A stretch of DNA of 64,000 bases from a virus, in IMG/VR virus record IMGVR_UViG_3300045988_023906. One strand, written 5' to 3'. Position 1 is the stretch's first letter, and every line of letters begins with the position of its first letter. Made by a program: the position numbers and the translations under genes. Positions 1-18,461 of this stretch are shown in pieces. The notes beneath the pieces were generated by a model. That model ran no database searches, had not been told where the DNA came from, and saw only the letters and a list, made by a program, of their open reading frames with translations.

Positions 1-2133
1 AGGGATGATAGGGGTAGAATCATTGTAGACTTGGCTAATCCTCATATATTAGAGGATATGGATTACTTCAGACCATCTGCTATACATTATGAGAAGTATG
101 GTACATTTACTAACCTTAGACCTAATGCCAATCCTAATAGTGAATATGGTAAGTGGGTAAGAGAGGAAAGAAGAAGAATCTGGGATGGTTATGTAAGGGA
201 AAGTGATGGAGAATGGGTTACAGGATATATGTATTGGTTCCTTAATTATTCTCCTATGATGCTCTCTAAGATTAGAGAGTATAAGGATAAGAATGGTAAG
301 AAGAAAAAGTCCAAGAGGGCTGATAGAGTAGAGGCATTACCTGAATGTTGGGAAGGTATCTATTGGAGATTCCATTGCTTAGACCAAGCATCAAATGGTG
401 GTTTATACAATAACTTTGGGGGAGGTCAGCACATGGCTGAACTTGCTTCCAGAGGTAAAGGTAAGTCATATAGTCTTGCATCTATACTTAACCATATCTT
501 TGTGGTAGGTGAGAATGAGGAAGCACATGAAAAGGTAAAGGGTATAGTAACTGCCTATCAGAAGGAGTATCTTACTAAGGATGGTGTCCTTAATAAGTTT
601 GTAGATATGGCTAACTTCTGTGCAACCAATACCCAGTTTCCAAGAAAGAGATTAAAGAACTCTTTACAGGAAATGACATGGATAATGGGGTATAAGGATG
701 TAGAGTTGGATATTGAAAGAGGTACTCAGAATACAGTACTTGGAGTATCATCTAAGGATGATGAGTCTAAGTTGAGAGGTAAGAGAGCTGCTAAGATTCT
801 TATTGAAGAGTTTGGTACATTCCCAAGATTAGTTGATTTGTATAATGTGCTTTTACCTTCAGTACAGGAAGGTGATATTGTCTTTGGACAAATCTATATG
901 TTAGGTACTGCTGGTGATAATGAATCAGACTTTGCTGGTGCTCAGGAAATCATGTATAACCCTAAAGGTTATAATATGTATGCTTTACCTAATGTATTTG
1001 ATAAGTACAACCAAGGTAAACCTTACTTTGTATTCTTCTTTCCTGGCTATGTGAATAGAAAGGGATGTTATAATGAGAATGGTGTATCTGATGTAATTAA
1101 GGCTCTGATTGAAATTCTTATGAATAGGTATAGGGTAAAGTATAATTCTACTGACCCTAACACTATTATTAAGACTATTGCTGAGGTTCCTATTACTCCT
1201 GCTGAAGCTATTGTTAAGACAGGTGTAAATATGTTTCCTATAGCTGACTTGACTGAAAGAATAGGTCAATTGGATGCTAATCCTACAGAATATGATGGTG
1301 TATATGTAGGTGATTTGGTATTCAATAAAGATGGTCAGGTGGAGTATAAACCTACCTCTGCTACACCTATTAGGGATTTCCCACATAAGGATAATAAGAT
1401 AGAGGGTGCTATTGAAATATATCAGTTACCTGAGATTGATAGGAATACAGGTAAGCCATACAATGATAGGTATATATTAGGTGCTGACCCTTATGATGAT
1501 GATGAATCAAATACTATGTCTTTAGGTTCTATATTTGTACTGGATTTATGGACAGATAGGATAGTAGCTGAATACACTGGAAGACCTCCTTTTGCTGATG
1601 ATTACTATGAGATTTGTAGAAAGCTTTGTCTATTCTACAATGGCAGGCTGAACTATGAGTACAATAAAAAAGGTCTATTCTCTCACTTCTCGACAAGAAA
1701 TAGTCTCTATCTTCTTACAGATGTTCTTGATTTCTTAAAGGAAAAGCAGATGATGAAAGATGGCTATGGTAACAAGTCAAAAGGTACTAATGCCTCTCCT
1801 GCCATTAATGCTTATGCAAGGAGTAGATTGAGAAGCTGGCTATTAGCTCCAGTTCCTATTATGCAAACTATTGATGGAGAAGAGAAAGAGGTAATGGTTC
1901 CAAGACTATTTACTGTGAGGAACAGAGCACTGCTGAAAGAGCTTATTAATTACAACTCTGAGGGTAACTTCGATAGAATATCTGCTATGGGTATGTTGAT
2001 GCTTCTAAGGGAAGATAGAATGATAAGATACCAAGGAGATGTTAGTAAGGAAAAGCAGGAGAGGGCTAATAATAGCTATGATGGTAATGACCCATTCTTC
2101 AAGAGGAACTATGACTTTAGGTTTGGGCAGTAA
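1..2133 (+). CDS. terL: Terminase large subunit, 5' end probably off-window
   Basis: The frame is open from nt 1, and the ORF-track start at 31 is a TTG. Walker A-like ASRGKGKS, Walker B-like KILIEEFG and a nuclease-type acidic motif LGADPYDDD are present. A portal-sized gene follows. Confidence 0.9.
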   Translation, partial: RDDRGRIIVDLANPHILEDMDYFRPSAIHYEKYGTFTNLRPNANPNSEYGKWVREERRRIWDGYVRESDGEWVTGYMYWFLNYSPMMLSKIREYKDKNGKKKKSKRADRVEALPECWEGIYWRFHCLDQASNGGLYNNFGGGQHMAELASRGKGKSYSLASILNHIFVVGENEEAHEKVKGIVTAYQKEYLTKDGVLNKFVDMANFCATNTQFPRKRLKNSLQEMTWIMGYKDVELDIERGTQNTVLGVSSKDDESKLRGKRAAKILIEEFGTFPRLVDLYNVLLPSVQEGDIVFGQIYMLGTAGDNESDFAGAQEIMYNPKGYNMYALPNVFDKYNQGKPYFVFFFPGYVNRKGCYNENGVSDVIKALIEILMNRYRVKYNSTDPNTIIKTIAEVPITPAEAIVKTGVNMFPIADLTERIGQLDANPTEYDGVYVGDLVFNKDGQVEYKPTSATPIRDFPHKDNKIEGAIEIYQLPEIDRNTGKPYNDRYILGADPYDDDESNTMSLGSIFVLDLWTDRIVAEYTGRPPFADDYYEICRKLCLFYNGRLNYEYNKKGLFSHFSTRNSLYLLTDVLDFLKEKQMMKDGYGNKSKGTNASPAINAYARSRLRSWLLAPVPIMQTIDGEEKEVMVPRLFTVRNRALLKELINYNSEGNFDRISAMGMLMLLREDRMIRYQGDVSKEKQERANNSYDGNDPFFKRNYDFRFGQ

Positions 2134-2177
2134 ATTTAGTAAAAATGGAGACTGATGGTTAATAAATTACTTATATA

Positions 2178-2209
2178 CTTGCATAGGTCAAGGATTTTAC
2201 TTACCTTTG
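2178..2209 (+). promoter_or_regulatory. Bacteroides-type promoter (cTTG-N20-TAccTTTG) upstream of the GIY-YIG gene
   Basis: TTG at 2179-2181, a 20-nt spacer and TACCTTTG at 2202-2209. It sits inside the conserved block TTACTTACCTTTGCA, 21 nt before the ATG at 2230. Confidence 0.7.
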
Positions 2210-2229
2210 CACAGTAATTAAATTGAAGT

Positions 2230-2916
2230 ATGAGGAAGAGAGATTATACTGTATATTTACATATAAACAAAGTGAATAAGAAAGTATATGTAGGAATAAC
2301 TTCTATGAGGGTAGAGAATAGATGGAGAGAAGGTAAAGGATATAAAAAGTGTGAAATCATGAATAAGGCGATACTAAAGTATGGTTGGAGTAATTTTGAA
2401 CACATTATACTCTGTAAGACTTCAAAGGATAGAGCTATAATTCTTGAAAAATCTCTTATAAAATTCTATAAGAATAGGAGAATAAGCTATAATATCTCTG
2501 GTGGGGGAGAGGATGCAGGCACTGTCAGTGAATACACTAAAGAAAAGCTTAGACAATATAAGGGAGAGAAATCTTCTATGTTTGGTAAGCATCCATCTAA
2601 AGAGACAATAGAAAAGAGAATAAGTACAAGAAAAGCTTTAGGGCATTATTCTAAAGACACTTCATGGTTAGCTCCATACAGATTAAGAAAAGGAAAAGAA
2701 AGTCCTATGTATGGGAGGAAGCCAAGTGAAAACACCTTATTGGCCCATAGAAAAGTAATACTTCAATTTAGTTTAGATGGAGAATTTATAAAAGAATTTA
2801 GTTCAATTAAGGAAGCCTCTGGGGAGATTGGTATTTCCAAGCCAGCAATTGTGCATTGCTTAAAAGGAAAAACTAAAAAGGCAGGAGGATATAAATGGAA
2901 ATATAAATATGAGTGA
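2230..2916 (+). CDS. Free-standing GIY-YIG homing endonuclease (I-TevI/Seg-like) with NUMOD3-like and C-terminal NUMOD1/IENR1-like HTH modules
   Basis: N-terminal YTVYLHINKVNKKVYVGIT...R...GWSNFEH matches the GIY-YIG core. MFGKHPSKETIEKRIS and MYGRKPSENTLLAHRK resemble NUMOD3. F-SIKEAS-EIGISKPAIVHCLKGKTKKAGGYKWKY resembles the HTH module. The 3' end overlaps the portal ATG by 8 nt. Confidence 0.85.
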   Translation: MRKRDYTVYLHINKVNKKVYVGITSMRVENRWREGKGYKKCEIMNKAILKYGWSNFEHIILCKTSKDRAIILEKSLIKFYKNRRISYNISGGGEDAGTVSEYTKEKLRQYKGEKSSMFGKHPSKETIEKRISTRKALGHYSKDTSWLAPYRLRKGKESPMYGRKPSENTLLAHRKVILQFSLDGEFIKEFSSIKEASGEIGISKPAIVHCLKGKTKKAGGYKWKYKYE

Positions 2917-5332
2917 ATTTTGTCAATTGCCCCCTCAAAACTTACCTTTTAATAAAAAGACCAAGGAATGGAGAAAGAAACACTTGGATTTTGCTGATTC
3001 AAAGACATTTTTTAACTATAGTCTTGTAAGGAAGAGTGTTATTCATAAAAAGATAGCGTATGACTTACTTAATGGGAAGCTTCACATGAGTGACCTTGAG
3101 ATGATACTGAATCCTGAGAAGCTACAGGCAGGTTTCATACCTGATAGAATCCAACACTATCCTATTATGAATAGTAAGTTGAATGTGCTTAGAGGTGAGG
3201 AAAGTAAGAGAGTTTTTGACTTCAAAGTAGTAGTTACTAACCCTAATGCTATTACAGAGATAGAGAATAACAAGAAGCAAGAATTACTACAGAAGCTACA
3301 GGAATGGGTATCTAATACTTCTCAATCAGAAGAGGAGGCTAACCAAGAGCTTGAAAAGATAAATGATTACTACACCTATGAGTGGCAGGACATGAGGGAA
3401 ATTAGGGCTAATGCCCTTCTTAACCACTATGTAAAGGAGTTGAATATTCCTTTAATGTTCAATCAAGGGTTCATGGATGCAATGGCAGTTGGTGAAGAGA
3501 TTTATCAATGTGATATTGTAGGAGGTGAGCCTACTATTGAAAGACTAAATCCACTCAAAGTAAGAATCTTTAAGTCAGGATATAGCAATAAGATTGAGGA
3601 TGCAGATATGATAATCCTCGAAGATTATTGGAGTCCAGGCAAGGTTATTGATGCCTACTATGATGTATTGACAAAGAAAGACATGGAGTATATAGAGAAA
3701 ATGCCTGACCATGTAGGTCAAGCTGCTACAGACTCTATGGATAATATTGATGAGAGATATGGCTTTGTCAATAATCACATGATAGGGGATGAAATAAGTA
3801 CAGAGGGATTCTTTTGGGACCCATTAGGAGGATATGATGGGGTTAATAACTCACTTCTTCCTTATGATGTTGCAGGAAACTTGAGAGTACTTAGAGTATA
3901 TTGGAAGTCAAGAAGAAAGATTAAGAAGGTAAGAAGTTATGACCCTCAAACAGGTGAAGAAGTATTTAACTTCTACCCAGAGACTTATGTAATAGATAAG
4001 GATGCTGGAGAAGAAGAGCAGATATTCTACATCAATGAAGCATGGGAAGGAACTAAGATTGGCACAGACATTTATGTCAATATGAGACCAAGAGTAGTTC
4101 AGTACAACAGACTAAGCAACCCTTCAAGATGTCACTTTGGAATTGTAGGTTCTATTTATAACCTTAATGACAACAGACCATTCAGCTTGGTGGATATGAT
4201 GAAGCCATATAACTACTTGTATGATGCAATACATGATAGATTAAATAAGCTGATAGCAAGAAACTGGGGTTCATTGGTGAGATTAGATTTTGCCAAGAAA
4301 CCTAAGGGATGGGATGTAGAGAAATGGTTATACTATGCAAAGACTATGGGTCTTGCAGTAGAAGATAGCTTCAATGAAGGTAATGTAGGTGCAGCTACAG
4401 GTAAACTTGCAGGTGCATTAAACAATGCTTCTACTGGGGTAATTGCAGCTTCTGATGGTAATCAGATACAGCAATACATTAATCTTCTTGAGTTTATCAA
4501 GATGGAAATGGCAGAAGTTGCTGGCATTACCAGGCAAAGAGAAGGTCAGGTAAGTAATAGAGAGACAGTAGGTGGAGTAGAGAGAAGCATGATGCAGTCT
4601 TCTCATATTACAGAGTGGCTATTTGTAGTACATGAGGATGTCAAGAAGAGGGCATTAGAGTGTTTGCTTGAAACAGCTAAGATAGCATTAAGAGGCAGAA
4701 GCAAGAAGTTCCAATATATCTTGTCTGATAATTCAATAAGAGTTATGGAGATAGATGGTGATGAATTTGCAGAAGCTGATTATGGTCTTGTAGTGGATAA
4801 TAGCAATGGTGTTCAAGAATTAAACTCAAAACTTGATACTTTAGCTCAGGCAGCATTGCAGAACCAGACTCTATCATTCTCAACTATTATGAAGTTATTC
4901 AGTTCATCTTCGCTTGCTGAAAAGCAGAGACTTGTTGAAAAGGATGAAAGAAGTATTCAAGAAAGACAGGCTCAAGCTCAACAACAGCAATTGCAGGTAC
5001 AGCAACAAGAGATAGAACAGAAGGCTCAGATGGAACAGGCTAAGATGCAACAGGAAGATGCTCTTAACCAAAGAGATAATGAGACAAAGATTATTATTGC
5101 ACAAATGCAAGCTTATAGCAAGAATAGTGAAGATGATGGTATAGTAGAACCTGAATATTCACAAGAGGCTAAAGACAAGCTAATGGAGCAGATGAGGGAA
5201 TTTGATTTAAGACTTAAGCTTGATAAGGAAAGGCTGGAGCATGATAAGGAGAAGGCTAAAACTGATGCAAGGCTCAAGGAAAAACAAATAAATAAGCAGA
5301 AAGCAACTTCTAATAACAATAATAAGCAATGA
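2909..5332 (+). CDS. Portal protein (807 aa) with a Q/K/E-rich coiled-coil C-terminal tail
   Basis: Called from position after TerL and from size typical of crAss-like portals. No catalytic motif can be read by eye, so the call rests on synteny and size. Confidence 0.7.
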   Translation: MSEFCQLPPQNLPFNKKTKEWRKKHLDFADSKTFFNYSLVRKSVIHKKIAYDLLNGKLHMSDLEMILNPEKLQAGFIPDRIQHYPIMNSKLNVLRGEESKRVFDFKVVVTNPNAITEIENNKKQELLQKLQEWVSNTSQSEEEANQELEKINDYYTYEWQDMREIRANALLNHYVKELNIPLMFNQGFMDAMAVGEEIYQCDIVGGEPTIERLNPLKVRIFKSGYSNKIEDADMIILEDYWSPGKVIDAYYDVLTKKDMEYIEKMPDHVGQAATDSMDNIDERYGFVNNHMIGDEISTEGFFWDPLGGYDGVNNSLLPYDVAGNLRVLRVYWKSRRKIKKVRSYDPQTGEEVFNFYPETYVIDKDAGEEEQIFYINEAWEGTKIGTDIYVNMRPRVVQYNRLSNPSRCHFGIVGSIYNLNDNRPFSLVDMMKPYNYLYDAIHDRLNKLIARNWGSLVRLDFAKKPKGWDVEKWLYYAKTMGLAVEDSFNEGNVGAATGKLAGALNNASTGVIAASDGNQIQQYINLLEFIKMEMAEVAGITRQREGQVSNRETVGGVERSMMQSSHITEWLFVVHEDVKKRALECLLETAKIALRGRSKKFQYILSDNSIRVMEIDGDEFAEADYGLVVDNSNGVQELNSKLDTLAQAALQNQTLSFSTIMKLFSSSSLAEKQRLVEKDERSIQERQAQAQQQQLQVQQQEIEQKAQMEQAKMQQEDALNQRDNETKIIIAQMQAYSKNSEDDGIVEPEYSQEAKDKLMEQMREFDLRLKLDKERLEHDKEKAKTDARLKEKQINKQKATSNNNNKQ

Positions 5333-6198
5333 AAAAATTTAGAGATATTATACAAGATATAAAAGCTCCAAGCACAAGTGACCTCTGGATTAATAATGGA
5401 GAGTTGAAGTACTATACTAGTAATGGCTGGAGAGCCATTACCAGTAATGGCTCTTCCGATGTATATGTTCTACCGGGTAACCTTCAAACAACAGAAGGAT
5501 GGTCTACAACAGACGTAGAATCTATTGTAGGGAATTGGGATGAGTTTACAAAAGCTGTCTCAGGTGGTAAGATAATTGTTGGTTATTTTCAAAACGAGGG
5601 ACAATTTGTCAAAAGTACAGCCTCAGTGATAGAAAATGGCGGGGTAACCTTTTTAAGTTTTAGCTTTTATCAGCTTCTTTGTGTATATATTATTGACCAA
5701 AGTTATATAACTATTGTTACTATTGATAATTTTCTTTGTGTGAGTTCTGTTGTAGACGGACTAAATAGTTCAGGAACTGAACTACCTCTCTCTGCCAACC
5801 AAGGTAGGATTCTTAATGATAGGGTAACAGAATTAGAGAGTAAGTCTAATGTTGCAGTGCTTACACCTACAGGTACAAAACTAACGGAGTTGGTATCCAG
5901 TAGTCCTAATGTTACACAAGAGCAGTTGGCTGAAGCAGGTTTCACTCCTGAAATATGTAGAAGGTTGAATGCTGGAGAAGTGATTTACATGAGTGGTGAA
6001 TGTGCTGGTTTTGGTAATGATGCTTTGTATCCAATACAGGGTATTGCCCCTAATTCCTCTCCTGACTTAGTACCGTCTAGATTGTGCTACTGTCACTATA
6101 GTAGTTATAATGCGGATGGCACTGCTAATGGAGGGTGCTTTACTACAATTAAGAAGCAATCCTCAGGTCAGTACCTTGTAGATTATATTGAGTTGTAG
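5329..6198 (+). CDS. Fibre-like virion protein (289 aa)
   Basis: Has the N-terminal motif SDLWINNGELKYYTSNGWRAI shared with neighbouring fibre ORFs, and one copy of the fibre repeat LPLSANQGRILNDRVTELE. It shows ATGA overlap with the portal stop. Confidence 0.55.
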   Translation: MKKFRDIIQDIKAPSTSDLWINNGELKYYTSNGWRAITSNGSSDVYVLPGNLQTTEGWSTTDVESIVGNWDEFTKAVSGGKIIVGYFQNEGQFVKSTASVIENGGVTFLSFSFYQLLCVYIIDQSYITIVTIDNFLCVSSVVDGLNSSGTELPLSANQGRILNDRVTELESKSNVAVLTPTGTKLTELVSSSPNVTQEQLAEAGFTPEICRRLNAGEVIYMSGECAGFGNDALYPIQGIAPNSSPDLVPSRLCYCHYSSYNADGTANGGCFTTIKKQSSGQYLVDYIEL

Positions 6199-6199
6199 T

Positions 6200-6352
6200 A
6201 TGGAAATGATGAAAAAGAAACAGGTTGTTGCTTCCCATAATAGAGAGCCTCTTATAGAGAATCTATGGTTAAGGGATGGCAAGTTGCTATACTTTGTCAA
6301 TGGAGAGTGGCAACCTGTATTAGGTCAAGATTCTAAAGTAATTATAGAGTAA
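6200..6352 (+). CDS. 50-aa ORF carrying only the fibre N-terminal motif (ENLWLRDGKLLYFVNGEWQPV)
   Basis: Hand-translated and below the ORF-track cutoff. The ATG lies 1 nt after the upstream stop, and the motif is shared with the 5329 ORF N-terminus. Confidence 0.4.
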   Translation: MEMMKKKQVVASHNREPLIENLWLRDGKLLYFVNGEWQPVLGQDSKVIIE

Positions 6353-6353
6353 C

Positions 6354-6545
6354 ATGTTCACTAAGAATCAAATAGAAGAAATTAGAGACAAATTGGCTCA
6401 GTTGGGAGTCAAGGATACAGAGTTTAAGGTAACAGAAGAAGCATCTGAAGATGATATGATAGCCATTGTCTCAGGTGGTGAGAATAAGATAATCCTGTTG
6501 AAAGACCTATTGAGTGAAGCAGCAGGTACTATTATTATCGAGTAA
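6354..6545 (+). CDS. 63-aa hypothetical protein, possible fibre N-terminal/adaptor fragment
   Basis: The ATG lies 1 nt after the previous stop. The DDMIAIVSGGENKIILLKDLL pattern resembles fibre N-terminal segments. The TAA stop runs straight into a 19-nt A tract. Confidence 0.45.
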   Translation: MFTKNQIEEIRDKLAQLGVKDTEFKVTEEASEDDMIAIVSGGENKIILLKDLLSEAAGTIIIE

Positions 6546-6562
6546 AAAAAAAAAAAAAAAAA
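6544..6562 (+). repeat. Homopolymeric A19 tract between the TAA stop (6543-6545) and the ATG at 6565
   Basis: Counted directly: A at 6544-6562, followed by GA then ATG. Confidence 0.95.
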
Positions 6563-6564
6563 GA

Positions 6565-8271
6565 ATGAAGATTGTTAATTCAATTATGCCAATGAGTGAT
6601 GTAAAGGCATTAGCAGCAAGCGGACAAAAATTAAGAGTAGCAGTAACAAAAACTTCCGCACAAGGTAGGGATGCACAAAGTACTACACCCAATTTAATGT
6701 CTTTCAGTATTGATGAAAGCAGTGTGTGGTTTAATGGAAAGAAGTATGGGGTACATAAATTTAATAATGTTTCAAGCCTGAATACTAACTCAACAGCAGA
6801 ACAGGTATTGTCTGCTTTGAATGTCAGGGAATCTTCTGAACTTTATGATTTAGCCCATAAAGGTGTACTTTTCATAGATACCATTTCTGGAAATACGATA
6901 GTAAAATATGAAGATGGGGATGACACTTTCCAACTCTATGTACCAAGCTCAAATTTAGAGTCAATAGAGAGACTTACTATTAATGTATCTAGTAATAAAG
7001 TGGTAAAGTTGACCACTACATCTCATTTAATGGTTGATGATATCAGGAATACTCTAACCTCTGCTGAGACTGCCAAGGTTCTTTCAGCCGCAATGGGCAA
7101 GAAGCTCCAGGATGAGAAGTTGGCTAAGACAGATGTGGTGAACAACCTAACTACGGATGAAGCTTCAAAAGCCTTATCAGCGGCACAGGGTAAAGCGTTG
7201 AATGACAAGTTTAATGGGAACAAGATAAATATCAACTTCTCAGCTATTTCAGATTCAACAAATAATGCCACTATAAAAGGCTACATGGGGAACATAAATG
7301 GTGACACTCTTGTTAGTAAGCTTACTTATGGTGCAAATCTGGTTGACAGTAGTAGTAATGATTGGGTAATTACTTTGCAGGAGGTAAGTGATACAAAGGT
7401 ATCATTTACAGGTATTAAATTCACAGATTTTAACTTATGCAGTAAGAATGTATCAGTTACTATAAGTGGCGGTAATTATACAAATGTGACTGTTGCTCAG
7501 GATAATAGGCTTGTACCTGCTATAAACAATACCTTAACTTCAACTAGTACTAGTGAGGCTCTTTCAGCAGCTCAAGGTAAAGTTCTTAATGACAGAATCT
7601 CAGGTTTGGGCAATGTGTATAGAGTGAGGGGTACTAAGACTAACTTATCTGATGTACTAGCCCTTACTGATGCAAAGGTTGGTGATGTTTGGAATGTGAC
7701 TAATGCCTTTATTTTAGGTGATAAGCCATATCCTGCAAATACCAATGTTGTATGTATTACAGCAACTAGCTCATCTGACCACGATGGAGGAAATTGGGAC
7801 CCGTTGGGAGGTACTGTTGATTTGAATTCTTATGTGCCTAAGAGTGATATAGTTGATAACCTATCAACTTCAGATTCAAAAAAGCCTCTCTCTGCTAAAC
7901 AAGGACTTGCCCTTGCTGATATGATAACGAAATTAAAAGCTGATAAGGAGACCTATCAGCTTCCCAAAGCACTTGTAAGTGGCACACTATCCACTCAGAA
8001 TGAAATAGATACTATTCTAGGTTCCTATAGTAGCTTCAATGCCGCCCTTAATGCAGGTAAGGTAATACATGGAGTATATAAAGACAGCATCAACAGAATG
8101 AATACAGTAGCATTCTCAGCATTCAATGATACTACTAACAGTAGGGTTGAAATGTTTGCGATACTGAATAATTCTACCTTACTATATATACAGGCTACTT
8201 ATAGTGGGGCTAGTTGGGTTAGTGCTACCACAAGGGAAGAGTCTTTTAATGCAAGCATCACTATAGAATAA
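6565..8271 (+). CDS. Tail fibre protein (568 aa) with four copies of the L-S/T-x-x-x-A-L-S-A-x-Q-G-K-x-L repeat
   Basis: The start is moved to M18 at 6565, because the ORF-track start at 6514 reads through the A19 tract as KKKKKK and overlaps the previous ORF. The repeats are LTSAETAKVLSAAMGKKLQDE, LTTDEASKALSAAQGKALNDK, LTSTSTSEALSAAQGKVLNDR and LSTSDSKKPLSAKQGLALADM. Confidence 0.75.
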   Translation: MKIVNSIMPMSDVKALAASGQKLRVAVTKTSAQGRDAQSTTPNLMSFSIDESSVWFNGKKYGVHKFNNVSSLNTNSTAEQVLSALNVRESSELYDLAHKGVLFIDTISGNTIVKYEDGDDTFQLYVPSSNLESIERLTINVSSNKVVKLTTTSHLMVDDIRNTLTSAETAKVLSAAMGKKLQDEKLAKTDVVNNLTTDEASKALSAAQGKALNDKFNGNKININFSAISDSTNNATIKGYMGNINGDTLVSKLTYGANLVDSSSNDWVITLQEVSDTKVSFTGIKFTDFNLCSKNVSVTISGGNYTNVTVAQDNRLVPAINNTLTSTSTSEALSAAQGKVLNDRISGLGNVYRVRGTKTNLSDVLALTDAKVGDVWNVTNAFILGDKPYPANTNVVCITATSSSDHDGGNWDPLGGTVDLNSYVPKSDIVDNLSTSDSKKPLSAKQGLALADMITKLKADKETYQLPKALVSGTLSTQNEIDTILGSYSSFNAALNAGKVIHGVYKDSINRMNTVAFSAFNDTTNSRVEMFAILNNSTLLYIQATYSGASWVSATTREESFNASITIE

Positions 8272-8281
8272 AAAAAAAGTT

Positions 8282-9988
8282 ATGAGTGCAGAAGGTAAAG
8301 AGTTTAAAGTAAATGTATCTACCGACAGAGCTACTGCAATAAGTAGCTCTGCTGGCAGTTACCCTAATGTGTTGTATTTCCCTATAGATGATGATAATGT
8401 CATCATATTTAATGGGAACATATATGATTGGAATGCAAGTGTAACTTCCCCCAAGTTAATCTCCTCAGGAGACCTGAATACATATAGGGGAACTCAATAT
8501 TTAGGTGTTTATTATGCCAATTATGGCAATAGTATAAGTAATAAACCTTCTGGAGTATCACAGTTTGCATTACATGTGCTCTTGGAGAATAATGACTCTT
8601 CGACTATACAGGTACTTTATTCAAAAAACAAGATATATACTAGAGCTTATGAGTCATCTTCTTGGTCTTCTTGGACTGAGATTGGTGCAGGAGGTGTAAC
8701 TTCTATACCTCAAGCTTCTAGTTCAGCATTAGGAGGTATAAAGATAGGGTACTCTGATAATGGCAGGAATTATGCTGTAGAGTTGGATAGTTCTGGTAAG
8801 GCTTATGTTAATGTACCATGGACAGATACAAATACAACATATAATGTTGCTACTGCTAGTGCCAATGGACTTATGAGTTCCAGTGATAAGTCCAAGCTTA
8901 ATGGAATCCAAGCAGGTGCAGATGCTGTGTCATTCAGCAGGTCTTTGTCTTCAGGTACAAAGATAGGTACCATTAATATTAATGGTGTCAATACTGACAT
9001 ATATGCTCCAACAGCAGGAGAGCCAGTTAAATATGAAGTAGCTACCTCAACTACACTAGGATTGGTCAGGATTGGGTATCCTGAGAGTGGTAAGAATTAT
9101 CCTGTTGAGCTTAATTCCTCAAATCAGATGTATGTCAATGTCCCTTGGACTGACAATAACACAACTTACTCAGCAGGAGCTGGACTTAATTTATCAGGAA
9201 CAGTTTTCTCCCTAAGGAAGGCAACACCTACTACACTAGGTGGTGTAAAGGTATCCAGCACTGAGATTAACACAATATCTACTGTTGCTGCTACTACTTT
9301 TGGTTTACAGAACAGAATATATCCTGTCCAGCTTGCTTATCCATCAGGTAGTGCAGGAACAGATGGTAATAAGGTACTTTCAGTGTATGTTCCTTGGGAG
9401 GATACTACTTATAGTGTAGTAAGTACCTCAAAGAATGGGTTAGTCAGTATGGATTCTGCATTGGCAGAGCTAGCCTACGAAGATAAGGATGCTGGTAACC
9501 TAGGTTCTCTTGCTAGATTTGGAGAGATGGGCATGTTGGAGGTTTCAACAATTATGGAAGATGACTTAGCTCTGGTTAATAAGAGTAATAGCTGGACAGC
9601 ATATCAGGACTTTAAGTCAGGTGCTGGTAATTCAGGCTCTGATATGAGATTCAAAAGGGAAGTCACATGTATGCCTGATGTGCTGGACAATCTGATGTCA
9701 TTAAATGTCATAAAGTATATATGGGAACACCCTGATGAAAATGGTATAAGATGCACTTTTGGTGTGAAAGCTGACCAGCTTCTGTCACTAGGTGGTGTAT
9801 ATGCTACTATGGTCCACAGCAGAGCTGATAAATATGATACCAAGTGGGTAGAATATGATAGATTTGGTGTGCTGGCAATCAAGGCATTACAGGAGGTTGT
9901 AATGAGGAACAAGCAACTGGAGAGCAGGATAGAATATCTTGAGGATACGATAAATTCTATGAGAAGAGTATGGGAAGAGAATTCATGA
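8282..9988 (+). CDS. Tail fibre/spike protein with three GxxKxGY...VNVPWTDTNTTY repeats and a C-terminal intramolecular chaperone (peptidase S74-type) domain
   Basis: The repeats are GGIKIGYSDNGRNYAVELDSSGKAYVNVPWTDTNTTY, LGLVRIGYPESGKNYPVELNSSNQMYVNVPWTDNNTTY and LGGVKVSS...LSVYVPWEDTTY. GLMSSSDKSKLNGI motifs are also present. Confidence 0.8.
   Translation: MSAEGKEFKVNVSTDRATAISSSAGSYPNVLYFPIDDDNVIIFNGNIYDWNASVTSPKLISSGDLNTYRGTQYLGVYYANYGNSISNKPSGVSQFALHVLLENNDSSTIQVLYSKNKIYTRAYESSSWSSWTEIGAGGVTSIPQASSSALGGIKIGYSDNGRNYAVELDSSGKAYVNVPWTDTNTTYNVATASANGLMSSSDKSKLNGIQAGADAVSFSRSLSSGTKIGTININGVNTDIYAPTAGEPVKYEVATSTTLGLVRIGYPESGKNYPVELNSSNQMYVNVPWTDNNTTYSAGAGLNLSGTVFSLRKATPTTLGGVKVSSTEINTISTVAATTFGLQNRIYPVQLAYPSGSAGTDGNKVLSVYVPWEDTTYSVVSTSKNGLVSMDSALAELAYEDKDAGNLGSLARFGEMGMLEVSTIMEDDLALVNKSNSWTAYQDFKSGAGNSGSDMRFKREVTCMPDVLDNLMSLNVIKYIWEHPDENGIRCTFGVKADQLLSLGGVYATMVHSRADKYDTKWVEYDRFGVLAIKALQEVVMRNKQLESRIEYLEDTINSMRRVWEENS
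9638..9988 (+). other. Auto-cleaving intramolecular chaperone domain (S74-like) of the 8282 fibre
   Basis: SDMRFKREV at codon 453 matches the S-D-x-R-x-K cleavage motif. It is followed by ...FGVKADQL...VEYDRFGVLAIKALQEV...LESRIEYLE, the typical ICD layout with a terminal coiled coil. Confidence 0.8.
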
Positions 9989-10800
9989 CACAAATAAAGG
10001 CAGTAAAGAAGGTAGGAGGTTTCCTACCTTCTGCTACAAAACGATTTTGTACAGCCTCTTGGCTTGCAGGCCATTCTGGTATATTTGATACCAACTCCCT
10101 ACAAGGGTATGAAGCAAAAGACTTTGTGAGTGAAATGCATATAAAGCCTGCTATAGTAACAACTAAATATGAAATAACAATTCCTGAGGTGAGGGTTTCT
10201 TTTGGATTTGAAAGTGGCACTCCTCAAAGATTTACATATCTTAGTGACTCTGACCAATTATCACAGACTAAGGCAGTCTTATGTGCAGTACCTGTTGATG
10301 GTGGTCAGATTTCTTCAAGTGTATATACTCCTACTAATGGTGGTAGAGATGACAATTATGGTGTACAGTATATGCTATTCTCAGGCATGAAAATATCTGT
10401 TGTTGCAGGCACCTCACTAGCTAAGTTATACATAGTATTGTATAATGACCAAAATACCATGGTTCAGTATAATAACAAGAGCATTACCAATCTTATGTCA
10501 GGTAACAACATATATAAGCTGGCTAATGCTACTATGAGAAATAGTTCTGTTTACAGTAGCCTGTTTAATGGTGCAAATTACACAAAGACACAAGCAGTAG
10601 GTGATTCTAATGGTAATGCTACTAATTCTGTGTGGTGTGCTATGCTTCCATTGACAGATGATGGAAAATCTAATGGGAGTTATTCAGTAGGTTCAAGCAT
10701 GGAGACACCTCCCACTAATGTCAATTCTAACCAGCAACTGTACAACTTCAAGGGTTCTATAGTTTACAACAAATTAAGTTCATTTACTCCAACTACATAG
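9985..10800 (+). CDS. Hypothetical virion/fibre-associated protein (271 aa)
   Basis: The ATG at 9985 forms an ATGA overlap with the upstream stop; an alternative ATG lies at 9970. The protein is Ser/Asn/Thr-rich and appears beta-rich. No motif was recognised. Confidence 0.5.
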   Translation: MTQIKAVKKVGGFLPSATKRFCTASWLAGHSGIFDTNSLQGYEAKDFVSEMHIKPAIVTTKYEITIPEVRVSFGFESGTPQRFTYLSDSDQLSQTKAVLCAVPVDGGQISSSVYTPTNGGRDDNYGVQYMLFSGMKISVVAGTSLAKLYIVLYNDQNTMVQYNNKSITNLMSGNNIYKLANATMRNSSVYSSLFNGANYTKTQAVGDSNGNATNSVWCAMLPLTDDGKSNGSYSVGSSMETPPTNVNSNQQLYNFKGSIVYNKLSSFTPTT

Positions 10801-12211: not shown

Positions 12212-12262
12212 TATGGCAAAGAAGTGTGGTTGCAAAGGAAAAGGTAAGAACAATAGAGGTAA

Positions 12263-12523
12263 ATGATTATGGATGCAAGAATAGTTTCAAATCAAGTTAT
12301 AAATAGCCTTCAAATATCTGTACTGAAGGAGGTGCCTTCAGGGAACTTCAATCCCGGAGTCAACTTCCTACTGAAGAATATATCTGATAATGATGTGGAG
12401 GTTACTATAATTCCAGCAGGACAAAAGGATAGCATAAAGACTATTCTAGGTGTTGGATGGAATCCAGAGATATGTAAAGGTGTTATAAATGCCCCTTCAG
12501 GAGTTCTTCAATATGGATATTAA
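12263..12523 (+). CDS. Hypothetical protein (86 aa)
   Basis: ORF tightly packed before the fibre gene. No motif was recognised. Confidence 0.45.
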   Translation: MIMDARIVSNQVINSLQISVLKEVPSGNFNPGVNFLLKNISDNDVEVTIIPAGQKDSIKTILGVGWNPEICKGVINAPSGVLQYGY

Positions 12524-12526
12524 GAT

Positions 12527-14623
12527 ATGGCAACAGCAATTATAGGTACATTAAAGCATCTTCCTAAGGCATCAATACTGCCTACTTTACCAGAGACAGG
12601 TAGACCTAACAGGATATATTTTATCCCCAATGAAGACCCTACAGAAGATAATAGGTATAATGAATATCTATGGGTAAAGGATGAGACTTATCCTGATGGC
12701 CATTGGGAGCTTGTTGGTCCTGCCACAATAGACCTGACTGATTATGCCACTAAGGAAGAGGTAAGTGATTTGGAAGACTCCATAGGTGAGCAAATAAAGA
12801 AGTATTTGCCCTTATCAGGAGGTACAATGGATAAGGGCAGCAACATATCCTTCCCATCAGATAGTGGGAGTACTGTGTATAATGGTTCTGGAATATCAGT
12901 GGGTGGCAAAGCCAGTACTGACATCCTACATGCAGCAGGAGGCACTACTAAAATCAAGACCTTGAATGGAGAATCTATGTTAGGAGAAGGTAATATTGTA
13001 ATAGACCCTTCAAGTGTTCCAGTATCTTTAAGCTGGTATAATAGGACTAGCAGTCAGCAGGATGCCACAATAAACCTGACAATTGGAGATACCACAGTAA
13101 ACCTATTCCCTAATATATTCAAATTATTTAAGGCTGGTAAAGTTTCCACTTCCGAGTCCCTTAGTATAGAACTTACTGCTAATCCTGGGGTAAGTGGGAC
13201 ACCACAAGTTCCTACCTCATTATGCCAGTGGAGCATACCTTTGGCTGACAGTAATACCGCAGGTATTATATCAAGTGAGGATAAGGCTAAGTTAGATAAC
13301 CTATCTGACCCAAAGAATTTGCTAGCTTATGGTGTGGAATGGGATTCTACCAACAGTAGCCCTGTACTTACTAGAATAGGTAACATGAGCCTGCATAAGT
13401 CTCTCCCAATACAATCAGCATTAAGAGGATGTGTATGCCAAGGTAAAAGGATAATGTATTATTTGGACCCAAATGACTGGTCTAAGAAAGCAGATGGTAC
13501 AGATTCCAGATTGGATGGATATGATGGTACTGTACAGGTAGAAGTACCTGAATTTTATTTGTGGTCTGAAACGGAAGGAACCAAATCCAGAGTATATGTG
13601 TCTACCCAAAAAGTAGTTTCTTATGCTATAAGGATTCCTCATATGTTGGTAGATGCTTATAGGAGTACTGTACTTAATGAAGTGCCTGAGGATATGGGCT
13701 ATTTATCTACACTTCAAGTAAATAGTGCTATTTCAGTTGTAAATACCTCTTCTTATTGTAGAGGAGGAAATAATAGCTCTAGCAGTGATACCTACTTGGA
13801 ATCGGATAAATTCAGGACTAGTTTAGGAAAACCTAGAACAAACACTAGTAGGGCAAACTTCAGAACTTATGCCAAAAATGCTGGCAAGATGTTGCTTACT
13901 TATGAGTACTACAAATCAATATTCTATTGGTTGTATGTTATAGAATATGCAAACTTCAATAGTCAGGCAAACTATGTTGAAGATTTGACTGAAGATGGAT
14001 ATAGACAGGGAGGGCTTGGCAATGGAGTTACTACTTGGAGTGATGCTGTTTGGAATACTTATAATGGCAGATGCCCAATAACTCCATGTGGGTATTGTAA
14101 TGAGTTTGGTAACTTTACTGGAATTAAGGACTTGGTAATTCCTGCTTCAGATGGTATCAGTACCGTAACTTTCAAAGTACCAAGGTGGAGAGGATTTGAT
14201 AATGTGTTTGGAGATATTTGGACTAATCTGGATGGTATCCTAATAGATACTTCTGTCAGTGCCAGTAAGTCCACACCAAACTATGTGTATATTATAAATG
14301 ACCCTGATAAGTTCACTGATACTTTGTCAGATGCACCTACCAATGCGGATAGAGTAGTAGTATCAGGACATACAGGAGGGTATATTACAAAGTGGGCATT
14401 AGGGGAGTATGCAGATATAATACCTGTTAGTGTTGGTGGTTCTGCAACTACTTATATGTGTGACTGTTACTGGGTAGATTCTGATAATACTCAGAATACA
14501 CTACTGGTTGGTGGCCGGGCTCATTATGGTTCTAATGCTGGCTTGGCTTACTTCTTTTCTGCTCATGGTTCGGGTTATGTTTCTGCCCATGTCGGCTTTA
14601 GGTGCTTAACACTGATAAGCTGA
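12527..14623 (+). CDS. Tail fibre / receptor-binding protein (698 aa), target of the DGR, with a CLec/FGE-like C-terminus
   Basis: N-terminal NRIYFIPNE...YNEYLWVKD...GHWELVG, a fibre motif NTAGIISSEDKAKLDNL, and C-terminal LLVGGRAHYGSNAGLAYFFSAHGSGYVSAHVGFRC carrying the variable repeat. Confidence 0.8.
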   Translation: MATAIIGTLKHLPKASILPTLPETGRPNRIYFIPNEDPTEDNRYNEYLWVKDETYPDGHWELVGPATIDLTDYATKEEVSDLEDSIGEQIKKYLPLSGGTMDKGSNISFPSDSGSTVYNGSGISVGGKASTDILHAAGGTTKIKTLNGESMLGEGNIVIDPSSVPVSLSWYNRTSSQQDATINLTIGDTTVNLFPNIFKLFKAGKVSTSESLSIELTANPGVSGTPQVPTSLCQWSIPLADSNTAGIISSEDKAKLDNLSDPKNLLAYGVEWDSTNSSPVLTRIGNMSLHKSLPIQSALRGCVCQGKRIMYYLDPNDWSKKADGTDSRLDGYDGTVQVEVPEFYLWSETEGTKSRVYVSTQKVVSYAIRIPHMLVDAYRSTVLNEVPEDMGYLSTLQVNSAISVVNTSSYCRGGNNSSSSDTYLESDKFRTSLGKPRTNTSRANFRTYAKNAGKMLLTYEYYKSIFYWLYVIEYANFNSQANYVEDLTEDGYRQGGLGNGVTTWSDAVWNTYNGRCPITPCGYCNEFGNFTGIKDLVIPASDGISTVTFKVPRWRGFDNVFGDIWTNLDGILIDTSVSASKSTPNYVYIINDPDKFTDTLSDAPTNADRVVVSGHTGGYITKWALGEYADIIPVSVGGSATTYMCDCYWVDSDNTQNTLLVGGRAHYGSNAGLAYFFSAHGSGYVSAHVGFRCLTLIS
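14504..14603 (+). repeat. DGR variable repeat (VR)
   Basis: 100 nt, 78/100 identical to 14702-14801 with no indels. All 22 mismatches lie opposite an A in the downstream copy. Confidence 0.9.
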
Positions 14624-14701
14624 TTTGATAAAGAAAAGAAAATCATAGTTTTACTATGTAGGACATATATTATACGACTTGGTTAGTTCTAATTGTAAAA
14701 A

Positions 14702-14801
14702 CTAGTTAGTAGCAAGGCTAATAATGGTTCTAATGCTAGCTTGGCTAACTTCAATTCTACTAATAGTTCAGGTAATGTTAATGCCAATATCAGCTTAAGG
14801 T
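14702..14801 (+). repeat. DGR template repeat (TR), non-coding
   Basis: Intergenic copy. It has 31 adenines, 22 of which differ in the VR. In the VR frame it reads LVSSKANNGSNASLANFNSTNSSGNVNANISLR, rich in AAT/AAC/AGC codons. It possibly extends 5 nt upstream to 14697, and is followed by a T10 run. Confidence 0.9.
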
Positions 14802-14928
14802 ATTTTTTTTTTGTTTTCTCTTTAAATTTTATATGTGATATATGTTCCTTGCCTCTAGGCAAAAGATAAATAGTTTAAAAAGTACTAGTAAGAGTTGCTG
14901 AAAGTGCTTAATATGAAACACCTAAATT

Positions 14929-15063
14929 ATGGTTAAAAGAAAAGGAAATTTGATTTTATCCCTATGCAGGATGGATAATATTCTCTTGGCAGATACAAAT
15001 GCTAGGAAAGCTAAAAGGAGGAGTAGAAGATTTATAGAAAAACATGATAAGAATATTATAGAA
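14929..15063 (+). pseudogene. N-terminal stub of a DGR-type reverse transcriptase
   Basis: MVKRKGNLILSLCRMDNILLADTNARKAKRRSRRFIEKHDKN matches the remembered RT N-terminal pattern M-KR-GNL...NL-LA--NARKGK. The RT finger/palm motifs (YxDD) are absent downstream. Confidence 0.6.
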
Positions 15064-15539
15064 GAGGATAGAAACTACCCTAGAAGGCATGAAGATGATG
15101 GTTTCATGGATGTGTTTGATTCTAGAAGCAATAGGTTTGGTGACAGGTTCAGAGACTCTGGCATGAGAGGAAATGACATGGACAGAATAATAAAGTACAT
15201 GAGACATTCCATGAATGATGGAGAACACTTTACTGAATCTGAAGCTATGGATTTGGTATCTAATATGAGGGTGGCAGAAAGTATAGTGGAGAAAAGTTTG
15301 ATATACATAAGGCAAAGGAAATTTGTGAAAGGTATAGAGGAGTGATTCCTGTGTCTGCAACTCCTACTGATGTGTATGTGGCAATCAACTCACAGTATCA
15401 TGATTATGTTGAGCTGTTTAAGAGTTGGTTTGGTGATAATGTAGACCAAAAGATAATAGAATCTGCTATTATATTCTGGTTCAAAGATGTGGATTGCAAA
15501 GCCGAAAACAAGGTAGTAGAATATCTTGGAGAATACTAA
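14929..15539 (+). pseudogene. Chimeric, frameshifted ORF: RT stub fused to an R/D-rich conserved hypothetical gene split by a -1 frameshift near 15264
   Basis: Frame A reads ...GEHFTESEAMDLVSN. The -1 frame continues YEGGRKYSGEKFDIHKAKEICERYRGVIPVSATPTDVYVAINSQYHDYVELFKSWFGDNVDQKIIESAIIFWFKD. Together these reconstitute one familiar protein family (from memory). Confidence 0.55.
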
Positions 15540-15545
15540 TAAGAT

Positions 15546-15577
15546 AAGGGTAAGAGGTAATCTTACCCTTTCTTTTT
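15546..15577 (+). terminator. Rho-independent terminator
   Basis: Perfect 10-bp stem AAGGGTAAGA/TCTTACCCTT with a 5-nt loop, followed by TCTTTTT. Confidence 0.75.
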
Positions 15578-15629
15578 GTCCATATTGCAAGTATTTTTAT
15601 ATGCTACTAATAAGTGTTTTATTTACTAT

Positions 15630-15661
15630 CTTGCAGATATGCAAAACTTTACTTACCTTTG
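15630..15661 (+). promoter_or_regulatory. Bacteroides-type promoter (cTTG-N20-TAccTTTG) for the scaffold/capsid operon
   Basis: TTG at 15631-15633, a 20-nt spacer and TACCTTTG at 15654-15661, within TTACTTACCTTTGCA. Confidence 0.7.
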
Positions 15662-15692
15662 CACTGTTTTAAGAACAAAAAGGTAGAAGAGT

Positions 15693-16859
15693 ATGGAAGA
15701 AGAACTTAGCTTAGATAACATCTTAGGAGCAGAGGAGATTGAGAATCTGTTTGTAGAAGATGAGGATACACAGGATACCCCACCTGCAAATGGGGAGCCT
15801 CCTAAGAAAGAGGAGGAGCCAAATAAGGATAAAGAAGAAACTACTGAGGTTGTTGATGTAGATAACTTATTTACTGATACACCAGAGAGCGTAGGTAGTG
15901 GAAAAGAAAATACAGAGGAAAAGGAAGATACCACTCCTAAAGGGGATGGCACTTCTCCCAAAAACTTCTACTCTTCCATTGCCAAAGCCTTGAAAGAGGA
16001 AGGTATCTTCCCAGCCCTTGATGATGAGGGCTTATCTAAGGTTAAAGACCCTGAAGACTTTAGAGATTTAATTGACCAACAGATAAAGGCAGGTCTTGAT
16101 GAAAGACAGAGAAGAATTGATGAAGCCTTGAATGCTGGAGTTGAACCTACAGAGATTAGAAAGTATGAGAATACTATAAACTTCCTTGATTCTATTAAGG
16201 AAGAGAATATCTCTGATGAAGGTGATAAGGGAGAAAAACTTAGAAAAGACCTGATTTATCAAGACTTTATCAATAGAGGTTATAGTAAGGAAAGAGCTGC
16301 AAGAGAAGTGCAAAAGTCTTTCAATGCTGGTACTGATATTGATGATGCAAAAGAGGCTTTGAAAAGTAATATTGACTTCTTCAAAGATAAGTATGATGAG
16401 CTTGTCAATGAGGCTAAGTCAGAAGCAGAACAGGAAGAGAAAGAAAGAAAGAAACAGGCTGAAAAGCTTAAATTATCAATCCTTAATGACAAGGATGTGT
16501 TTGGGGATTTATCAATAGATAAATCAACAAGACAGAAGGTTTATGATAACATAGCTAAGCCTGTGTATAAAGACCCAGAGACAGGAGAGTACTTTACTGC
16601 TATCCAAAAATATGAGATGGAGAACAGAACAGACTTCCTAAAGAACATTGGGTTACTTTTCACACTAACTGATGGCTTTAAGAACCTTGATGGTTTGGTG
16701 AAAGGTAAAGTAAAGAAAGAAGTAAAGAAAGGTCTTAGAGAGCTGGAACATACTCTCAACAACACAGCAAGAACCTCAGATGGTAATCTAAAGTTTGTCA
16801 GTGGAGTTGATGAGGACCCTGAATCTTTCATAGGAAAAGGGTGGAATCTTGATGTCTAA
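15693..16859 (+). CDS. Scaffolding-like protein (388 aa, acidic N-terminus, K/E-rich helices)
   Basis: Lies immediately upstream of the capsid gene. The N-terminus is highly acidic and low-complexity, and the composition is coiled-coil-like. Confidence 0.45.
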   Translation: MEEELSLDNILGAEEIENLFVEDEDTQDTPPANGEPPKKEEEPNKDKEETTEVVDVDNLFTDTPESVGSGKENTEEKEDTTPKGDGTSPKNFYSSIAKALKEEGIFPALDDEGLSKVKDPEDFRDLIDQQIKAGLDERQRRIDEALNAGVEPTEIRKYENTINFLDSIKEENISDEGDKGEKLRKDLIYQDFINRGYSKERAAREVQKSFNAGTDIDDAKEALKSNIDFFKDKYDELVNEAKSEAEQEEKERKKQAEKLKLSILNDKDVFGDLSIDKSTRQKVYDNIAKPVYKDPETGEYFTAIQKYEMENRTDFLKNIGLLFTLTDGFKNLDGLVKGKVKKEVKKGLRELEHTLNNTARTSDGNLKFVSGVDEDPESFIGKGWNLDV

Positions 16860-16946
16860 GCTATGTTTAAGTCTGGTATTTACTTATGGAGAAATAAAAT
16901 TACTAATGGTTTTATAAAAATAATTTATAATTTTTAATATTTTTTG

Positions 16947-18461
16947 ATGATGGCTGGAAAATTAGGTAAGTTTCAAATGGTAGGCTTCCAACACTGGAAG
17001 GGCCTTACTAAGGAAAACCACCTTGGTTCTATCTTTCAGTTAGCTCCACAGAAGGCTACAAACCTAATGGTACAACTGCTGGCCTTCTATAGAGGAAAGA
17101 CACTTGACACATTCCTAAATCAATTCCCAACAAGAGAGTTTGAGGATGATAATGAATACTACTGGGATGTTATTGGTTCTTCAAGGAGAAACATTCCTCT
17201 TGTAGAGGCAAGAGATGAAAATGGTACTGTTGTTACAGATGCCAGTGGTATGATTGGAGTAGGCACTGCTCCCTTCTATTTGGTATTCCCTGAGGATTGG
17301 TTTGCTGATGGTGAATACATTGTAGGTAATCTGAATGAAATCTATCAGTTCAGAATACTTGGAGACCCAAGAATGGAGGGTACTAATGCAGTGTATAAGG
17401 TAGAGCTTGCTGGTGGTAACACAGCAGGTGTTCCTGCTGAAAGATTGCTTGCAGGTGAGAGATTCTCAGTTGAAGCTGCATTTGTTGAGAAGGAACTTTC
17501 AAGAAAGGTTGGTGATGTAAGATTTACAAGCCCTGTTTCTATGAGAAATGAGTGGTCTGTAGTAAGAATCCAACACAAGGTTCCAGGTTCTATGTTGAAC
17601 AAGAAGCTGGCTGTAGGTATTCCTATTGTTAAGGAAACTGAGGGTAGATATACTAAGTCAGTTGCTACAATGTGGATGCACAATGTAGATTGGGAAGTAG
17701 AACAGCAATTCTCTGAGTACAAGAACAATGCACTTGCATTTGGTAGAAGCAACAGAAATGCCAATGGTGAGTACATGAACTTTGGTAAGTCTGGTAATGT
17801 TATTAAGACAGGTGCTGCTCTGTTTGAGCAGATGGAAGTTGCTAATACTGTGTATTACAACACATTCAGCTTGAAGCTTCTTGAAGATGCTCTATATGAG
17901 CTTTCTGCTTCTAAGTTAGACTTTGGAGACAGATACTTCTTGATTAAGACTGGTGAGAGAGGTGCTATCCAATTCCACAAGGAAGTACTAAAGACAGTAT
18001 CAGGTTGGACACAATTTGTTCTTGACAACAGCTCTATTGGTGTTATTCAAAAGACTCAATCTAAGTTGCACCAAAACTCATTGAGTGCTGGTTTCCAATT
18101 TGTTGAGTATAAGGCTCCTAATGGTGTTAGAGTTAAGATTGATGTAGACCCATTCTATGATGACCCAGTAAGAAACAAGATACTTCATCCAAATGGAGGT
18201 GTTGCATTCTCTTACAGATATGATATTATGTACATTGGTACTATGGACCAACCTAATATCTTTAAGTGTAAGATTAAGGGTGACAATGAGTACAGAGGTT
18301 ATCAATGGGGTCTAAGAAACCCATTCACAGGTCAAAAGGGTAATCCTTACATGTCATTTGATGAGGATTCTGCTGTAATTCACAGAATGGCTACTCTTGG
18401 TATCTGTGTTCTTGACCCAACAAGAACTATGTCACTAATCCCTGCAATTCTACAGGGCTAA
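16947..18461 (+). CDS. Major capsid protein (about 504 aa)
   Basis: Called from size and position (scaffold-like gene upstream, strong terminator downstream) as in crAss-like phages. The ATG is at 16947 or 16950; the track start at 16944 is a TTG. Confidence 0.65.
   Translation: MMAGKLGKFQMVGFQHWKGLTKENHLGSIFQLAPQKATNLMVQLLAFYRGKTLDTFLNQFPTREFEDDNEYYWDVIGSSRRNIPLVEARDENGTVVTDASGMIGVGTAPFYLVFPEDWFADGEYIVGNLNEIYQFRILGDPRMEGTNAVYKVELAGGNTAGVPAERLLAGERFSVEAAFVEKELSRKVGDVRFTSPVSMRNEWSVVRIQHKVPGSMLNKKLAVGIPIVKETEGRYTKSVATMWMHNVDWEVEQQFSEYKNNALAFGRSNRNANGEYMNFGKSGNVIKTGAALFEQMEVANTVYYNTFSLKLLEDALYELSASKLDFGDRYFLIKTGERGAIQFHKEVLKTVSGWTQFVLDNSSIGVIQKTQSKLHQNSLSAGFQFVEYKAPNGVRVKIDVDPFYDDPVRNKILHPNGGVAFSYRYDIMYIGTMDQPNIFKCKIKGDNEYRGYQWGLRNPFTGQKGNPYMSFDEDSAVIHRMATLGICVLDPTRTMSLIPAILQG

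Follow-up and report, generated by a model that had tools for sequence, protein, structure and literature searches.

A probable fossil DGR in a crAss-like phage, with its reverse transcriptase reduced to an N-terminal stub

The DNA analysed here, a stretch of 64,000 nucleotides (IMG/VR record IMGVR_UViG_3300045988_023906; hereafter, the window), is part of the genome of a crAss-like phage of the Steigviridae, most closely related to Kahnovirus oralis cr85_1. It very probably carries a decayed DGR, a fossil left by deletion of the reverse transcriptase (RT) gene. Target gene, VR, TR and spacer are all intact in the window, and the RT is represented by its first codons. The initial annotation had offered a fossil DGR as one of two readings, and this one fits both the mapped deletion and the population data described below. 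The retained cassette consists of five features:

12527-14623, + strand: DGR target gene, intact, encoding a 698-aa tail protein with a C-terminal VR (ORF; PHROG phrog_5302 'tail protein', E 7.8e-85)
14503-14603, + strand: VR, inside the target gene, a 101-nt direct repeat with the TR
14701-14801, + strand: TR, with 32 adenines, reading LVSSKANNGSNASLANFNSTNSSGNVNANISLR (Asn-rich) in the VR frame
14802-14928, + strand: TR-RT spacer with a T-run and a short hairpin, retained and collinear with 3219-3345 of the relative L011
14929-15072, + strand: RT stub; codons 1-45 are clearly RT, and codons 46-48 (E-D-R) lie within the junction microhomology

The target gene is 98.4% identical in nucleotide sequence to gp076 ('tail protein') of cr85_1, the nearest deposited genome. 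VR forms the last ~40 codons of the tail protein, which ends in ...GFRCLTLIS, and TR is the second repeat copy, 198 nt downstream of VR. The two repeats differ at 22 of 101 nt, and all 22 mismatches fall at TR adenines (10 A>G, 7 A>T, 5 A>C; hypergeometric P 6.9e-15, given 32 A in the 101-nt TR). Such adenine-only differences are the classical DGR signature. When the IMH and IMH* ends are compared, the repeats part right after ...AGGT, with GCTTAACACTG in VR and ATTTTTTTTTT in TR. Pfam, NCBIfam and PDB sequence searches assigned no fold to the target protein, and the predicted RNA fold of TR plus spacer is no more stable than shuffled sequences (z +1.13). At two sites, TR position 43 (14743; A>G) and position 89 (14789; G>A), the TR of the window differs from every other TR seen, a pattern that would fit a relaxation of constraint on a template no longer in use.

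An ORF of 138 aa (14929-15345) opens 127 nt 3' of TR, as the initial annotation had noted, and it starts with codons 1-45/48 of a DGR RT. Stub residues 1-46 match the N-terminus of the intact 338-aa RT of L011 at 45 of 46 positions. When a profile made from 19 DGR RTs of crAss-like phages is compared with the window in six frames (804 segments), it picks out just one ORF, that at 14929 (E 3.6e-13, profile positions 1-53; runner-up E 0.66), so that the proposed homology of residues 1-45 to RT is significant in an HMM search. A tblastn search for RT in the window likewise returns the stub alone (E 5e-17). Pfam RVT_1 does not match the stub ORF because RVT_1 begins at residue 75 of the intact protein. 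The earlier description of an RT cut down to a stub of ~45 N-terminal codons is thus upheld by both the identity to L011 and the profile match.

A protein-database search with the stub finds short ORFs only and no intact RT; intact copies were found only by a pattern scan of metagenome contigs with the stub DNA. The most informative of these, L011 (UEYF01000054), is a 102,674 bp gut contig that contains, in order, the target gene with its C-terminal VR, TR, a 127-nt spacer and an intact 338-aa RT. This RT matches RVT_1 (E 1.3e-16) and phrog_1423 'reverse transcriptase' (E 9e-107), possesses the motifs IGNYLSQ and YADD, and aligns over residues 2-324, N-terminus included, with BPP-1 bRT (PDB 8ub7; E 4.8e-40). 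The catalytic motifs of a DGR-type RT (YxDD, IGxxxSQ) are missing from the window, in which codons 1-45/48 are all that is left of the gene. The ancestral cassette was probably target-VR-TR-spacer-RT with no avd, the arrangement preserved in L011.

The accessory gene Avd is present in most DGRs, though not in all. No ORF lies between target and TR/RT in the window or in intact L011, where 306 nt, with TR inside, separate the target stop from the RT start. Since L011 has an intact RT and also has no Avd, the missing gene is not part of the decay, and the cassette is natively avd-less. The initial annotation was right that Avd is absent, but its absence is not a loss.

Alignment with L011 also places the deletion at base level. 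The two sequences are collinear over L011 1-3489, after which that of the window continues at L011 8204; the junction, which had been anticipated near 15060, maps to 15063-15072. The features on its right-hand side are as follows:

15063-15072, + strand: deletion junction, a 10-nt microhomology (AGAGGATAGA) present in one copy in the window
15073-15345, + strand: remnant of a gp071-like gene (DUF7841 family), fused in frame to the RT stub (tblastn with cr85_1 gp071; DNA alignment; Pfam)
15342-15539, + strand: 65-aa ORF, the out-of-frame remainder of gp071, encoding the C-terminal half of the DUF7841 domain (Pfam PF25223, E 2.4e-19, profile positions 55-112 of 114)
15546-15570, + strand: terminator-like hairpin and T-run that ends the transcription unit
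15693-16859, + strand: cr85_1 gp070 homologue, 388 aa, the first retained downstream gene and right limit of the dispensable region

The repeat AGAGGATAGA occurs twice in L011, in the RT gene at 3480-3489 (codons 45-48) and in the gp071-like gene at 8204-8213 (codons 47-50), and the 4,714 bp between the two copies are absent from the window. The missing DNA comprises RT codons 49-338, with all catalytic motifs, the first ~47 codons of gp071 and seven whole genes: a 135-aa membrane ORF, an HTH_17 gene, a GIY-YIG homing endonuclease and homologues of gp075, gp074, gp073 and gp072. None of the seven occurs elsewhere in the window. In the lineage of the window, a deletion of 4,714 bp joined the two AGAGGATAGA copies. 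A further deletion of 10 nt (TGTATCACAC) after 15265 shifts the frame and leads to a stop at 15343-15345; it would have come later, frameshifting the RT-gp071 fusion. This frameshift explains why DUF7841, which forms the C-terminal part of gp071, is split over the 138-aa and 65-aa ORFs, and the in-frame fusion explains why the stub ORF continues into sequence that the initial annotation had called R/D-rich. That sequence is indeed not RT, but neither is it arbitrary, being the in-frame middle of a DUF7841-family gene (cr85_1 gp071). We infer that the 138-aa chimeric ORF is a pseudogene product. Beyond the gp070 homologue comes the major capsid gene (16944-18461).

Because the join is located at a 10-nt repeat, it could in principle be a chimera created there during assembly, but the chance of this is negligible. 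Such a repeat is far below assembly k-mer size, and the identical junction is found in all 10 contigs read with the ORF, which come from ENA megahit k119, JGI and Logan assemblies. Exact look-ups of the chimeric ORF and of the 698-aa target give the same index-block distribution (2 at 20-50 kb, 10 at 50-200 kb), and the 10 contigs read in each represent at least three samples and assemblers. Fetched contig copies with this junction are 99.99-100% identical to the window, VR included. The same junction and VR in the contigs read indicate that the junction is real and that the consensus VR is invariant, although as a test of stasis this is weak, since contigs sharing the junction are nearly clonal and have little time depth.

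The search for another RT was extended over the window and its surroundings. There is no RT-like YxDD block in the 64 kb, as previously stated, and neither tblastn nor the 19-RT profile over six frames finds a second RT in the window. It is very improbable that the cognate RT has moved, or that a second RT exists, within the ~34 kb of genome outside the window. About 17 kb of the strain's genome lie beyond the stretches inspected and could hold such a gene, but the RT gene has been deleted in place, with stub and junction still present. Moreover, L021, from the same strain, has no RT in the 7.8 kb preceding the window, and relatives with 96.6-99% identity over the window's adjoining last 1.6 kb have none in the ~9.2 kb past its end. 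In the complete cr85_1 genome, RT similarity is confined to a single remnant, located at the same locus, that covers RT residues 143-269, with TR and the RT 5' end deleted.

About 40 related loci were gathered by searching with the stub, target and junction ORFs. A scan of IMG/VR with a 26-nt TR pattern found nothing, since the pattern held a TR base private to the window strain; the stub pattern found one IMG/VR contig, and the protein-seeded scan worked. Mapped on L011, nearly each contig has its own set of deletions between ~650 and 8710. Of the 27 close relatives that are informative, 24 carry RT deletions, each a different one; in L044 the RT is frameshifted, and in L011 and L012 it is intact, in the latter as far as its locus reaches. 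A functional RT is thus missing in 25 of 27. One clade, whose members are 0-4 SNPs apart over 1,957 nt of target gene, contains at least three distinct RT deletions as well as a frameshifted RT, so RT loss is recent and recurrent. More distant target homologues (42-57% identity) have a full-length RT directly behind the target in 31 of 37 cases. An apparent hot spot for deletion at RT codons 31-66, suggested by the left ends of the first 12 alleles, was rejected as ascertainment bias because the stub had been the query: left ends in target-seeded relatives are spread from L011 position 3072 onward.

Once the RT is gone, decay of the cassette continues, with VRxTR collapse in L008 and L027 and truncated targets in L004-6, L008, L026 and L028. 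In the collapsed loci, homologous recombination between VR and TR (L008 5557-5786, L027 5774-5874) removed the 198 bp between them, leaving one hybrid repeat with the 5' part of VR and the 3' part of TR and truncating the target C-terminus. VR-TR collapse is a second recurrent route of cassette decay. A different change is seen in L044 (IMGVR_UViG_3300029780_000039), whose RT (9396-10380) is frameshifted near codon 110. The 3' two-thirds of its TR (~9270-9370) have no adenine at all (A>N), with a 7-nt deletion at the end, and it looks as if mutagenized cDNA homed into the TR.

The deletions are spread over a block of ~8 kb (L011 ~650-8710, corresponding to window ~12230-15560) that spans an 86-aa ORF, target, RT, the membrane ORF, HTH, GIY-YIG, gp075-gp072 and most of gp071. 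Up to five or six strain-specific deletions occur per contig, as seen in loci L001, L004-L010, L018, L019, L026-L029 and L031-L047, and the retained segments of the block are 97-100% identical. Except for GIY-YIG, every gene from the 135-aa membrane ORF through gp071 is also conserved in bajarodcaudo virus 1 (L002), which has no DGR. Despite that conservation, these backbone genes are evidently dispensable in the phages studied here.

With no cognate RT, mutagenic homing would have stopped, and the 22 A-to-N differences between VR and TR would then be a frozen record of past activity. Comparisons of VRs, made on consensus contigs only, are in line with this reading. L004, L005 and L006, from three samples, have one junction and identical VRs, with 6 mismatches and 4 gaps in 11 kb. 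L026 and L027 have a common junction and a common 5' part of VR; in L027, VR is collapsed onto TR. Four loci, cr85_1 (L001), L032, L040 and L045, have in common a deletion of L011 3073-3771 (TR and the RT 5' end) and differ in later deletions. This clade has one VR with few point changes, some of them at non-A sites, and is a natural example of a frozen VR. The VRs of different alleles agree at just 6-15 of 25 variable A-sites.

The second reading in the initial annotation was that the orphan VR/TR is serviced in trans. The RT of a co-infecting relative of the L011/L012 type, or that of another element, would then act on the retained TR and spacer RNA, and VR would still diversify. This reading gained no positive evidence and is unlikely. 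Trans-complementation is physically possible, since human guts harbour circulating relatives whose RT is intact (L011, L012) and whose cassette DNA is ~98% identical to that of the window, where TR, spacer, VR and target are intact. A further point in its favour comes from four junction alleles, L029, L008/9, the window and L018, which lie within 10 nt of one another in the RT gene and within 53 nt in gp071. Taking L029 as the starting point, L008 lacks a 12-nt repeat unit and the window lacks 48 nt flanked by short direct repeats, while L018 equals the window minus GAGG; the VRs of L029, L008, the window and L018 nevertheless differ. The four near-coincident junctions could derive from one primary deletion plus slippage, in which case the differing VRs arose after RT loss, via recombination or an RT acting in trans.

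Several observations speak against trans-servicing. The same junction with a different VR was not found among the contigs compared. The target gene of L018 differs by 1 SNP in 1,957 nt from that of L044, in which the RT is present though frameshifted, and by 18 from that of the window. Left-flank SNPs at window 14884 and 14893 put the window and L018 on different haplotypes, the left flank of the window having SNPs in common with L029 and L012. These flank haplotypes favour independent deletions or recombination over trans-homing. The window VR is also mosaic-like, with the A-site pattern of L008 in its 5' part and that of L029 in its 3' third, as predicted by recombination between fixed VRs and not by fresh mutagenic homing. 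Finally, decay continues in the RT-less cassettes of relatives, which speaks against their being selected for function. Of the two readings, the fossil one is clearly probable and is preferred to servicing in trans. A more specific version, in which RT-less cassettes with a TR are 'cheater' DGRs whose TR RNA is used by the RT of co-infecting relatives while VR goes on diversifying, is slightly less likely still; if it is true, the near-coincident junctions with different VRs reflect diversification after RT loss. Two private TR changes in L018 that are copied in its VR were considered as proof of homing after TR divergence, and this was rejected, as the bases concerned are the commonest VR bases at those sites and a chance match has a probability of ~0.24.

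The fossil reading has a close parallel in p-crAssphage. Of genus I genomes, 73% have incomplete DGR cassettes, with truncated RT and/or target genes and with or without TR, and 16% have complete target-VR-TR-RT cassettes without avd; the DGR was suggested to be dispensable in the stable gut, or the region to be unstable from imperfect retrohoming (Morozova et al. 2020, PMC7290462). As in that genus, the group of the window has an avd-less target-VR-TR-RT cassette beside tail genes that is mostly decayed (intact here in 2 of 27). The window retains VR beside a truncated RT, whereas its relatives L011 and L012 are complete at the locus, the arrangement of an incomplete cassette. The initial annotation had called an orphan VR/TR cassette relying on a trans RT unusual, but an RT-less VR/TR is not unusual in crAss-like phages, given the 73% of p-crAssphage genus I genomes with incomplete cassettes and the 25 of 27 relatives without a functional RT here. 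The two groups differ in family (Steigviridae, Kahnovirus-like, versus Intestiviridae) and in target (a 698-aa tail protein versus a 486-aa tail-collar fibre protein), and the deletions described here also take neighbouring backbone genes.

Two complete systems serve as further references. CrAssphage LMMB has an avd-less, lineage-3 DGR architecture (PMC7290462), the same as that of L011, whose RT is 57% identical to its own over residues 2-324; LMMB is complete with a lineage 3 RT, unlike the window with its stub. The BPP-1 DGR (bRT, Avd, TR, Mtd) resembles the cassette described here in its adenine-specific TR-to-VR differences at the C-terminus of a tail protein, and its RT is homologous end to end with that of L011 (PDB 8ub7). 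It differs in that the window lineage has no Avd and the gene order target-TR-RT, and in that the RT has been deleted in the window. Decayed cassettes without RT are thus already known in another crAss-like group, and the window is a further case in a different family. What this case adds is a set of junctions with microhomology resolved to the base, the removal of adjacent backbone genes and a clade with a frozen VR.

Other variation is found around the cassette. Homing-endonuclease genes are numerous: a GIY-YIG/NUMOD ORF lies among tail-fibre genes at window 2230-2916 (+ strand), an HNH gene follows the major capsid gene in L019 (10083-10670), and endonucleases associated with introns interrupt the major capsid gene of bajarodcaudo virus 1 (L002 9143-13230). 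The upstream tail-fibre genes vary in number and size among otherwise near-identical contigs (L020-L022). Over 12 kb, the window and L018 differ at ~270 alignment columns (223 mismatches plus gap positions), and 112 of these fall in the 500 nt at window 15500-16000, from the gp071 3' end to the gp070 5' end, which is a recombination patch relative to L018. Target homologues with 42-57% identity and an adjoining full-length RT (L048-L084) are present on viral contigs that reach 186-282 kb, indicating that DGRs of this type are widespread among crAss-like or related phages with much larger genomes.

Taken together, these loci provide a base-by-base record of how a phage DGR dies, through microhomology-associated RT deletion, VR-TR collapse, target truncation and the freezing of VR. 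They also provide a natural set of alleles for testing whether RT acts in trans, with RT-plus, RT-minus with TR, and RT-minus without TR all represented. For annotation, the finding is a caution that VR/TR pairs with a perfect adenine signature can be relics, and that DGR finders seeded with RT miss most cassettes of this lineage. In this second crAss-like family, RT has been lost many times within a very young clade, whereas distant relatives almost always keep it.
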